Positions 1,041 to 63,122 of a stretch of DNA of 64,000 bases are shown piece by piece. Every line of letters starts with the position of its first letter. Position 1 is the first letter of the stretch. The DNA is from Paraspadella gotoi (taxonomy: Eukaryota > Animalia > Chaetognatha), in NCBI GenBank assembly GCA_051294375.1, contig JBJCIZ010000239.1, positions 6,879,826 to 6,943,825 of the forward strand. Reading direction: 5' to 3'. A program made the translations under genes and the position numbers. Below the pieces are notes generated by a model. That model did no database searches. It was given only the letters and a program-made list of their open reading frames with translations, and was not told the origin of the DNA.

Positions 1041-1276
1041 CCTCCTAATGGCCGTCTTCGTCTTCGTCATTCGCGAGGTGTGGATCTCGTCGTCGTCGTC
1101 GTCGTCGTCGCTTCATGTACTACCGATTTAAAAATTATCAATTCAATCCTTACTTTGCATAGGATGGTGAGTTAGTGCCTTCATCACTGACATAGCGGGA
1201 CCCTGCAGGCTTTCAATCAAGACTCTCTCACAGTCTGGCTTCCCTATCAATGACGTGTTAAAATGTTTCTAATCTT

Positions 1277-1349
1277 GAACGGTTAGCTCAGTCGGTAGAG
1301 CACGGGACTCTTAATCTTGGGGTCGTGGGTTCGAGCCCCACTCTGAAAA
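1277..1349 (+). pseudogene. tRNA-Lys(CTT)-derived sequence (pseudogene or SINE head)
   Basis: TAGCTCAGTCGGTAGAGCACGGGACTCTTAATCTTGGGGTCGTGGGTTCGAGCCCCAC matches the eukaryotic tRNA-Lys-CTT body; acceptor stem does not pair. Confidence 0.75.
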
Positions 1350-3056: not shown

Positions 3057-58185
<55,129 letters not shown>

Positions 58186-62183: not shown

Positions 62184-63122
62184 GTATCACCACGGTTTGG
62201 GCGGAATGGGTCAGCGGCGTCGGGCAGGATGAGGCACGTCGGGCACCACGGGCATCACCCACACGCTCATGGAGGTGAGGGGGGAAGTGGGGTAGGAGAG
62301 AAGGTGAGTTGAGGGGGTGGGTGGGGGGGTAGTGGATGTAGGAAAGAAAAAAAAGGAGTGAAGAGACAGTAATTATTGTTATATGTTAGTGTCAGAACCG
62401 TTCAATATAAGCAGTCCCTGAGCTTCGGATCAGGCTGTAACACCGTTGTTACAAGCGGGTTAAGCGCCCTTCTCTCTAACTGCAAGGCGACCTCCGGGCT
62501 AAAACCGCGGACCTTTGGGTTGAGAGGCGAATGACTTGCCTCCGGCACCAATGGCCACTGATGAACGGTTGGTGGATTTTAGTCCACCATACATCCCCCC
62601 TCCCGTAGGGAGAAGTCTGTTGCGTCTCTTCAGTGAATTGTTGTTGTTGGTGGAAAGTGCATCACCAAGTTGAGGCATGTTGCCTGATTTGTTGTGGGTG
62701 GAAAGTGCATCGCCAGGTTGAGGCATGTCGCCTGAAAGTGTTGTTGTTGCTGTTGTCGTGAAGTCGGCTCACCAATGAAGAGACAGTGATAATTGTTATG
62801 TGTTAATGACAGAACCGTTCAATGTAAGCAGTCCCTGAGCTTCGGATCAGGCTGTAACACCGTGTTACAGGCGGGTTAACCGTCCCTCTTAACTGCTAGG
62901 CGACCACCGGGCTAGAACCCCGGACCTTTGGGATGGGAGGCGAATGACTTGCCTCCGGCACCAATGGCCGCTGATGAACGGTTGGTGGATTTTAGGTCCA
63001 CCATAGGAGGAAAGTTTATGGGGAAAACGTCCTAACTTCTTTAATTCATGCACCTAAATTTTAATACTTAAATTTTAAACCTAATCGCTGACACACTATT
63101 ACTTATCCATAATACTAATGTT

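Follow-up and report, generated by a model that had tools for sequence, protein, structure and literature searches.

On the minus strand of the window (the whole 64-kb stretch of DNA analysed here), positions 63005-62359 hold a 647-bp element with the layout LTR-PBS-interior-PPT-LTR, bounded by a TSD. On balance, we lean towards reading it as a decayed copy of a high-copy, Helenus-like TRIM that is likely to be an animal LTR retrozyme, whose RNA would be cut by twister ribozymes acting as swapped pairs, closed into a circle and copied by a Gypsy element, probably from a tRNA-Trp primer.

Anatomy of the element

An earlier note on this DNA had described a miniature, non-autonomous LTR element at this place. 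Its layout and the lengths of its parts were found on the minus strand as proposed, as was the TSD, which reads CTCC on that strand and GGAG on the plus strand, and the description is borne out by the anatomy, the TSD and the high copy number of the family. The parts are:

63006..63009, minus strand: TSD, 5' copy, CTCC (from the sequence; the LTR end was placed independently by contig loose ends)
62776..63005, minus strand: 5' LTR, 230 bp, termini TA...CA (sequence comparison)
62983..63003, minus strand: 7-bp hairpin at the 5' end of the 5' LTR (fold)
62763..62774, minus strand: PBS of the tRNA-Trp type, TGGTGAGCCGAC (compared with Fig. S2 of PMC10886601 and with the contigs)
62592..62775, minus strand: non-coding interior, 184 bp (sequence)
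62594..62604, minus strand: PPT, polypurine tract (sequence)
62359..62591, minus strand: 3' LTR, 233 bp (sequence comparison and contigs)
62355..62358, minus strand: TSD, 3' copy, CTCC, reading GGAG on the plus strand (sequence)

The two LTRs (230 bp and 233 bp) are only 90.6% identical over 234 columns, so the insertion is old. No open reading frame of at least 120 amino acids overlaps the element. In the interior, a repeat of 47 nt is present twice (62641-62735), and 9 nt at 62632-62624 are complementary to the 3' end of the LTR. The TSD is set in pyrimidine-rich flanks. All the features that define a TRIM were found: a length below 1 kb, two LTRs, a PBS, a PPT, the lack of coding sequence, a TSD and numerous copies that share their termini.

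Copies of the family

We surveyed the family in contigs from four public runs (of 12 listed), placed on the element at 80% likeness. Matching contigs numbered 13,435 in run X1, 3,234 in X5, 1,087 in X9 and two in X10; the last of these runs was left out of the evidence. The loose ends of the contigs stack at three positions: 98, 78 and 28 of them (X1, X5 and X9, respectively) lie before 62359, 141, 112 and 21 behind 62591, and 96, 63 and 24 before 62776. Because of this stacking, we regard the LTR termini TA...CA as fixed and the family as high-copy. The summed contig depth of the LTR compared to that of the interior carries no weight.

The PBS of this copy is one base shorter than in most of the contig depth (4,315 of 6,693 in X1 with the extra base). 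The majority version and the tRNA-Trp PBS shown in Fig. S2 of PMC10886601 agree at 12 of 13 positions, which upholds the tRNA-Trp type that had been suggested for it. For the copy at 63005-62359, eight of the first nine bases match the printed PBS, and then a gap follows.

Two solo LTRs of the same family are present in the window:

41915..42146, minus strand: solo LTR with the full 6-nt stub GGCGCU; L1 and T2 mutated
36283..36506, plus strand: second solo LTR, within an inverted duplication of the 42-kb region

The inverted duplication that carries both is 95.6% alike over 3.4 kb; the two solo LTRs thus represent one insertion, not two. At the solo LTR 42146-41915, the flanking 4-mers differ, and no TSD was found. 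Neither a Gypsy partner nor a second PBS was found within the 64-kb window. The types of TSD and PBS, together with the repeat landscape, suggest that the host is an animal.

The window contains large inverted and direct duplications (34831-39097/39281-43582, 42180-49042/49044-56041 and 20923-23056/30642-32777). Many homopolymer-length differences and N gaps lie near them, and some of the duplications may be assembly artefacts.

A twister fold in each LTR

Each LTR had been said to contain a P5-permuted twister fold. This assignment is supported by a descriptor, by a custom covariance model and by a homologous module in a second repeat family (family B, below).

62827..62897, minus strand: P5-permuted twister fold of the 5' LTR (descriptor, custom covariance model, folds)
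62410..62484, minus strand: twister fold of the 3' LTR (L4 62429-62422; predicted cut 62462/62461)

In the 5' LTR, the parts follow one another in the order P5, UAAGAGG, GACGG, stub, UAA, CCC, GC, P3, P4, UCCGAAGC, P4' and P5. The stems are P5 (62897-62892/62832-62827), P3 (62870-62852) and P4 (62851-62847/62838-62834); L1' GACGG occupies 62884-62880, the UAA 62878-62876, T2 GC 62872-62871 and L4 62846-62839. The cut sites are predicted at 62878/62877 in the 5' LTR and 62462/62461 in the 3' LTR, with 416 nt between them (62877-62462). These sites and their spacing, both L4 loops and the position of GACGG agree with what had been claimed. Twister, PBS and PPT all lie on the same strand.

The U^AA in L1, the GA opposite it and the A.A pair are present in the 5' LTR and in the solo LTR at 36 kb, and one copy has UCA. 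T1 (3 bp) and T2 (2 bp) are complete in the 5' LTR; among the four LTR copies, T1 is complete in three and T2 in two. P4 has 5 bp in all four, while P2 consists of 2 bp and a mismatch or bulge. The pair that closes L4 is A-U in all four copies and stacks on a CCUG/CAGG stem that family B has as well. Of the four LTR copies in the window, not one retains an undamaged twister core.

The damage to this copy had been described as a missing P1 stub in the 5' LTR and a T1 mismatch and a T4 run in the 3' LTR. The 5' stub is indeed down to 1 nt, T1 of the 3' LTR is mismatched (GAAGG 62472-62468) and the T4 run is at 62504. The damage to the 3' twister was understated, however, in that its P2 is weakened and its stub has 5 nt. 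The copy at 63005-62359 is, judged by its sequence, probably inactive. At the joint 62879-62934, contigs of three of the four runs show a variant of the family that has GACGU in front of an unchanged stub; a matching change in L4 would be further covariation.

Tests of the twister likeness

The earlier note had proposed a check with Infernal and the Rfam twister models, and this check was negative: no LTR copy matched at E ≤ 10, where the RF02684 gathering threshold is 37.6 bits. Among phage control loci, 19 of 20 matched Rfam Twister-P5, and 25 of 26 matches were above gathering. Rfam matches of sR38, GHRLOS and P26 on the element or the solo LTR were far below gathering and were rejected as chance.

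A strict descriptor, in which T1 was defined by complementarity, had one match in the window, the 5' LTR, and none in 100 window shuffles or 20,000 LTR shuffles. In two comparison sets of phage loci, the same descriptor matched 63 of 83 loci and 18 of 120, and it matched none of 109 motif-only loci. A general descriptor had three matches in the window, compared to one in 100 shuffles. Both descriptors were written after the sequence had been seen and are post hoc. The custom covariance model was built from 24 microbial twisters (alignment A1, with one misaligned row, L302), two of which bear the T1 swap and were put in the training set on purpose. The four LTR copies took ranks 1 to 4 among its 12 matches in the window; they scored low, at 14.5-16.1 bits (E 0.03-0.08; 12.7 bits for the next match), and only the top two are in register.

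The GACGG/UCCGAAGC swap in T1 gave at least 123 pattern matches in at least 120 loci in GTDB, and among those listed, four have stems. Two bacterial T1-swap twisters score above the Rfam gathering threshold for Twister-P5 (49.4 and 48.9 bits). A viral scan for the GACGG/UCCGAAGC variant yielded no locus, out of 109, that satisfies the descriptor. A metagenome scan for the stub motif of the family returned eight loci, none with twister stems and none with a blastn match to the element. P2 strands of 3 nt are also frequent, in 82 of 104 pattern matches with stems. In published mutagenesis (PMC5113685, PMC11662667 and PMC5408937), T1 pairs are mostly swappable, P1 is dispensable and faults in P2 are tolerated; the G-C pair that closes L4 is described as essentially invariant in PMC5408937.

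Two by-products of these scans are recorded here. Loci L342:58-113 (minus strand) and L408:58-111 (plus strand) are Twister-P5 ribozymes of bacteria in which T1 has the less common GACGG/UCCGAAGC swap. Phage contigs L294, L253, L270, L291, L305 and L287-L290 contain arrays of three to at least five P5-type twisters that lie a few hundred bases apart.

Family B, a second repeat with a homologous twister

Family B is a different, AT-rich repeat in the same window that contains a homologous P5-type twister:

3495..3557, plus strand: family B twister with stub AGGCCU (Rfam Twister-P5, 25.8 bits), in the repeat 3452-3611
about 13095-13150, minus strand: family B copy, in the repeat 13040-13151 (homology)
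40696-40756, plus strand: family B copy, in the repeat 40653-40756 (homology)
37673-37770, minus strand: family B copy, a duplicate of 40653-40756 (homology)
1188-1229, minus strand: family B fragment (homology)

The score of 25.8 bits is below the RF02684 gathering threshold. The copies of family B are alike in their 3' part only and may represent the tail of a Penelope-like element.

The LTR and family B modules have a mean column identity of 69%. Between them, three of the eight core pairs (one in P2, one in T1 and one in T2) differ in both of their bases. Of the cells, 91% are paired, compared to 23-52% in slid controls. This covariation amounts to three events in two homologous families, and 188 of 500 shuffles reach the count of two-sided pairs. 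Between the families, P4 gains a base on both sides, and P5 differs in sequence yet pairs in both. These two stems were judged by eye and by folding.

That the twister likeness is due to chance could be argued from the negative Rfam search and from the post hoc descriptors. However, the shuffles rarely or never reproduced the matches, the homologous module in family B scores 25.8 bits with Rfam Twister-P5 and pairs with compensation, and the order of the parts and the start of P3 resemble those of the Schistosoma mansoni twisters in Table 1 of PMC8501958. We consider chance scarcely credible and largely refuted already. As a prediction from sequence, the twister fold holds up despite the absent Rfam score.

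The homology of the two modules also bears on a different explanation, in which the twister is a passenger captured from a family B element, possibly the tail of a Penelope-like element, and the TRIM is an ordinary Helenus. The damage to all four copies in the window, the A-U pair that closes L4 and the lack of an Rfam match would all suit a passenger. Against it, the two families differ in P2, T1 and T2 by changes that compensate each other, P4 gains a base on both sides, P5 pairs and the stub is self-complementary. Among the 40 of 61 variant rows of the contigs that were listed, none falls in the UAA, T2, P4, L4 or P3 stems of the 5' LTR. The compensated changes could, however, predate the capture. 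We think the capture of a passenger decidedly unlikely.

The P1 stub and possible cleavage as a dimer

In the position of P1, the family has a stub of 6 nt, GGCGCU, as in the solo LTR 42146-41915; the stubs of the 63005-62359 element have 1 nt (5' LTR) and 5 nt (3' LTR). The 6-nt stub is also seen in the loose ends of contigs before 62880 (107, 23 and 17 contigs). In phage P5 twisters, the P1 hairpin has 14-30 nt (the search pattern allowed 4-30). A P1 helix in cis is absent here, and the stub could pair solely between two copies. In family B, the stub is AGGCCU in two of three distinct copies and AGGGCU, which is not palindromic, in the third. Both GGCGCU and AGGCCU are self-complementary, with duplex energies of -8.3 and -9.1 kcal/mol, respectively. 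By chance, 5.3% of hexamers are self-complementary when G-U pairs are allowed and 1.6% when they are not.

When two natural copies were co-folded, they formed a domain-swapped dimer in which the stub duplex and P5 join the two strands. The dimers are 10-15 kcal/mol lower than two monomers (-68.9 compared to -54.0 and -37.7 compared to -27.8 kcal/mol); the co-folding excluded pseudoknots, and part of this gain is generic. That P1 is replaced by a self-complementary hexamer in both families suggests that the twister would cleave as a domain-swapped dimer.

Alternatively, the twister might cleave as a monomer, with the stub forming a hairpin of a single G-U pair and a loop of four bases; circles would then arise as in plant retrozymes, and the palindrome would be incidental. 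P1 is dispensable in trans constructs (PMC5408937), and P1 imperfections have no average effect in more than 1,900 natural twisters (PMC11662667); as twisters without P1 cleave well, a monomer may suffice. The RNAs in these tests have open P1 ends, however, with no covalent linker of 6 nt, and self-complementarity is kept in both families with different letters. This alternative seems very improbable to us. The palindromic stub offers a clean and cheap way to ask whether a twister can need a partner copy. A partner-dependent twister would cut full-length transcripts and spare transcripts of solo LTRs.

The tRNA-like segment

Directly upstream of the twister fold, each LTR contains a degenerate tRNA-like segment:

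62899..62972, minus strand: tRNA-like segment of the 5' LTR (fold and box patterns), a putative Pol III promoter
62486..62559, minus strand: tRNA-like segment of the 3' LTR, with the T4 run at 62504

A box-B-like core was found in the 5' LTR at 62919-62910 (GGTTC 62919-62915). In the 3' LTR, the majority letter at 62502 restores the GGTTC core, and the T4 run is absent from most contigs. The description of the segment as a 72-nt tRNA-like cloverleaf stands in part. An acceptor-like pairing and a T-arm-like hairpin can be drawn by eye, and a loose box (GGTTY.A..C) is present in three of the four LTR copies. Against the full cloverleaf, ARAGORN found no tRNA gene in the 64-kb window, Rfam at E ≤ 10 found no tRNA at the element or the solo LTR, RNAfold gave no D-arm for the segment and the strict A-box and B-box patterns are present in none of the four LTR copies. 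Another tRNA-like stretch of the window resembles the segment only weakly (76 of 2000 shuffles reach the same score, p=0.038). The lack of T4 runs is not significant (26% of shuffles) and carries no weight.

A partial tRNA-Lys-like sequence at 1284-1341 (plus strand; Rfam 42.4 bits, missed by ARAGORN) is probably a SINE head or a pseudogene. A similar translated signature was found near 14514-14600.

Proposed life cycle

We propose a transcript, probably made by Pol III, that would start at the tRNA-like segment or upstream of it and run into the 3' LTR. The 5' half of the twister in one LTR would pair with the 3' half of the other by way of the stubs, and both U^A sites would be cut. For the copy at 63005-62359, cuts at 62878/62877 and 62462/62461 would release a unit of 416 nt. 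An RNA cut twice at the same LTR site would contain the equivalent of one LTR and no terminal R repeat; without R, the first-strand transfer would be impossible unless the ends are ligated. The ends predicted for twister cleavage are of the kind joined by RtcB, which would yield a circle, and the monomers of animal retrozymes are circularised by RtcB in vitro (PMC7229834). Reverse transcription around the circle would rebuild two LTRs, and the Gypsy integrase would insert the product with a 4-bp TSD. A Gypsy element primed by tRNA-Trp would supply both the reverse transcriptase and the integrase.

In the predicted circle, 52% of the bases are paired (z -1.3 compared to 100 shuffles); it is no more structured than the shuffles and differs in this from the highly paired circles of retrozymes. 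The value is that of a decayed copy, and the stability of the whole circle carries no weight. There are two long-range pairings of 9 nt, which frame the tRNA-twister domain and the interior.

The strongest competing reading has a linear RNA that is cut in the 3' LTR alone. The twister would be active for 3'-end formation only: RNA from the 5' tRNA-like segment would evade the first cut often enough and be cut in the 3' LTR, leaving an R of about 90 nt, and transposition would be linear and Cassandra-like, with no circle. The tRNA-like part is followed by no T-run, unlike in most of the Helenus LTRs compared, and the ribozyme could replace the terminator. Cassandra transcripts begin and finish inside the small-RNA segment, according to PMC10886601, and the fold of the circle is unremarkable. 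Against this reading, identical ribozymes in both LTRs would be predicted to act at both sites, most of all when they form a symmetric dimer, and plant LTR retrozymes of the same geometry accumulate circles (PMC7761336). We regard a role in 3'-end formation alone as unlikely.

Comparison with known systems

Helenus, or TRIMp3 (Kojima 2024), is described in PMC10886601 as a TRIM whose LTR is tRNA-like, whose PBS is of the Gypsy type and whose TSD in animals has 4 bp. The element shares with Helenus its length of less than 1 kb, the lack of coding sequence, a tRNA-like segment (degenerate here) in both LTRs, GGTTC in box B, a PBS, a PPT and a 4-bp TSD, and its tRNA-Trp PBS is like that of Helenus-2_SyJa and Gypsy-32_NVi. 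It differs in that the tRNA-like part lies near the 5' end of the LTR, has no TRGCY box A and precedes a twister fold rather than a T-run. With the strict box pattern in none of four copies, the element is by sequence Helenus-like, not a Helenus member. None of the motifs of the family matched the Helenus consensus file (PMC10886601), in which line breaks could hide some matches. PMC10886601 contains no mention of twister, and the word hammerhead occurs in a reference title only.

By eye, the LTRs of Helenus-2_SyJa and Helenus-2_SyUm (Synergus wasps) contain a type III hammerhead directly after the tRNA-like part, with no T-run. The fold has the core CUGAUGA...GAAA, a GUC site, a stem I of 7 bp and a complementarity of 12 nt between loop I and loop II. 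Like the element, these two have a tRNA-like segment and then a ribozyme-like fold in each LTR, a tRNA-Trp PBS and a 4-bp TSD; they differ in having a putative hammerhead where the element has its twister fold. PMC10886601 makes no mention of this hammerhead; the two families would be animal LTR retrozymes already present in Repbase. A literature search for hammerhead, Synergus and LTR returned PMC10886601 only.

Plant LTR retrozymes also have a ribozyme at the same place in both LTRs, a non-coding interior, a PBS, a PPT, a 4-bp TSD and a dependence on Gypsy elements (PMC4918200 and PMC7761336). They have a type III hammerhead, a tRNA-Met PBS, LTRs of about 350 bp and highly paired circles known by experiment, whereas the element has a twister, a tRNA-Trp PBS, LTRs of 233 bp and a predicted circle. 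No hammerhead was matched by Rfam in the LTRs of the element, where the twister fold takes its place; the predicted sites flank a non-coding unit of 416 nt with PBS, PPT and 4-bp TSD. According to PMC4918200, PMC7761336 and PMC7229834, animal retrozymes lack LTRs, PBS and PPT. By analogy, the element is likely to work like a plant LTR retrozyme on a Helenus-like scaffold and is a strict member of neither group.

The fold resembles Twister-P5 (RF02684) in the order of its parts, the GA and UAA of L1, T1, T2, the L4 pattern, P2 and P4, and its P3 is as in some natural members. It differs in that a self-complementary stub of 6 nt takes the place of the P1 hairpin, an A-U pair closes L4, the P5 helix is closed and there is no Rfam score. 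In the minimal hammerheads of type I that occur in Penelope-like elements and in retrozymes of amphibians (PMC6765202 and PMC7229834), a core helix is likewise shrunk to a palindromic loop and tandem copies cleave as dimers; these belong to another ribozyme class and to non-LTR hosts, and dimer cleavage is demonstrated for them, whereas it is predicted for the twister here. The T-variants of Perere-3 in S. mansoni (PMC8501958) also combine a twister with a poor P1 and a similar start of P3 in an animal retrotransposon. They are of the P1 type, however, with one per element at the 5' end of a non-LTR element, and the TSD completes P1. The SINE-like hammerhead elements of Schistosoma (PMC6765202) have a promoter followed by a self-cleaving ribozyme and are non-autonomous, but they have no LTR, PBS or PPT.

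The combination of features had been presented as new, and this holds in part. The literature consulted, with subscription journals, Repbase Reports and the supplements of PMC11662667 and PMC8501958 outside its scope, contains no description of a twister in an LTR element or of a dimeric natural twister, and no printed description of the combination was found. However, Helenus (PMC10886601), which the earlier note did not recognise, is a published TRIM with a tRNA in its LTR, a PBS of the Gypsy type and a 4-bp TSD, and a tRNA-type promoter with a ribozyme is known from the Schistosoma SINE-like elements (PMC6765202). The overall scaffold is known; what is new here is the twister fold, its dimer-type stub and a ribozyme fold in an animal LTR element.

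More tentatively, and with somewhat less than even confidence, we suggest that animals have true LTR retrozymes: TRIMs with a tRNA promoter and a ribozyme slot in the LTR, which would be taken by a dimeric twister here and by a type III hammerhead in gall wasps, with a circle of about 420 nt closed by RtcB. If this is true, the element would bring the first LTR-borne twister and the first twister in nature that depends on a dimer, and it would be the natural equivalent of expressing circular RNA with Pol III and twister. Reviews split retrozymes into those of plants, with LTRs, and those of animals, without LTRs, all with hammerheads; a twister LTR element in what is apparently an animal, together with the wasp hammerhead, would break this split and provide the twister with a second defined role in retrotransposition. 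The element also makes the definition of RNA ends in Pol III-type TRIMs testable.

Elsewhere in the window, an open reading frame at 16231-20937 (plus strand) runs uninterrupted for 1,568 amino acids and begins with an N-terminal HEPN_DZIP3 domain (E 8.5e-10); it is probably an immune-type gene.
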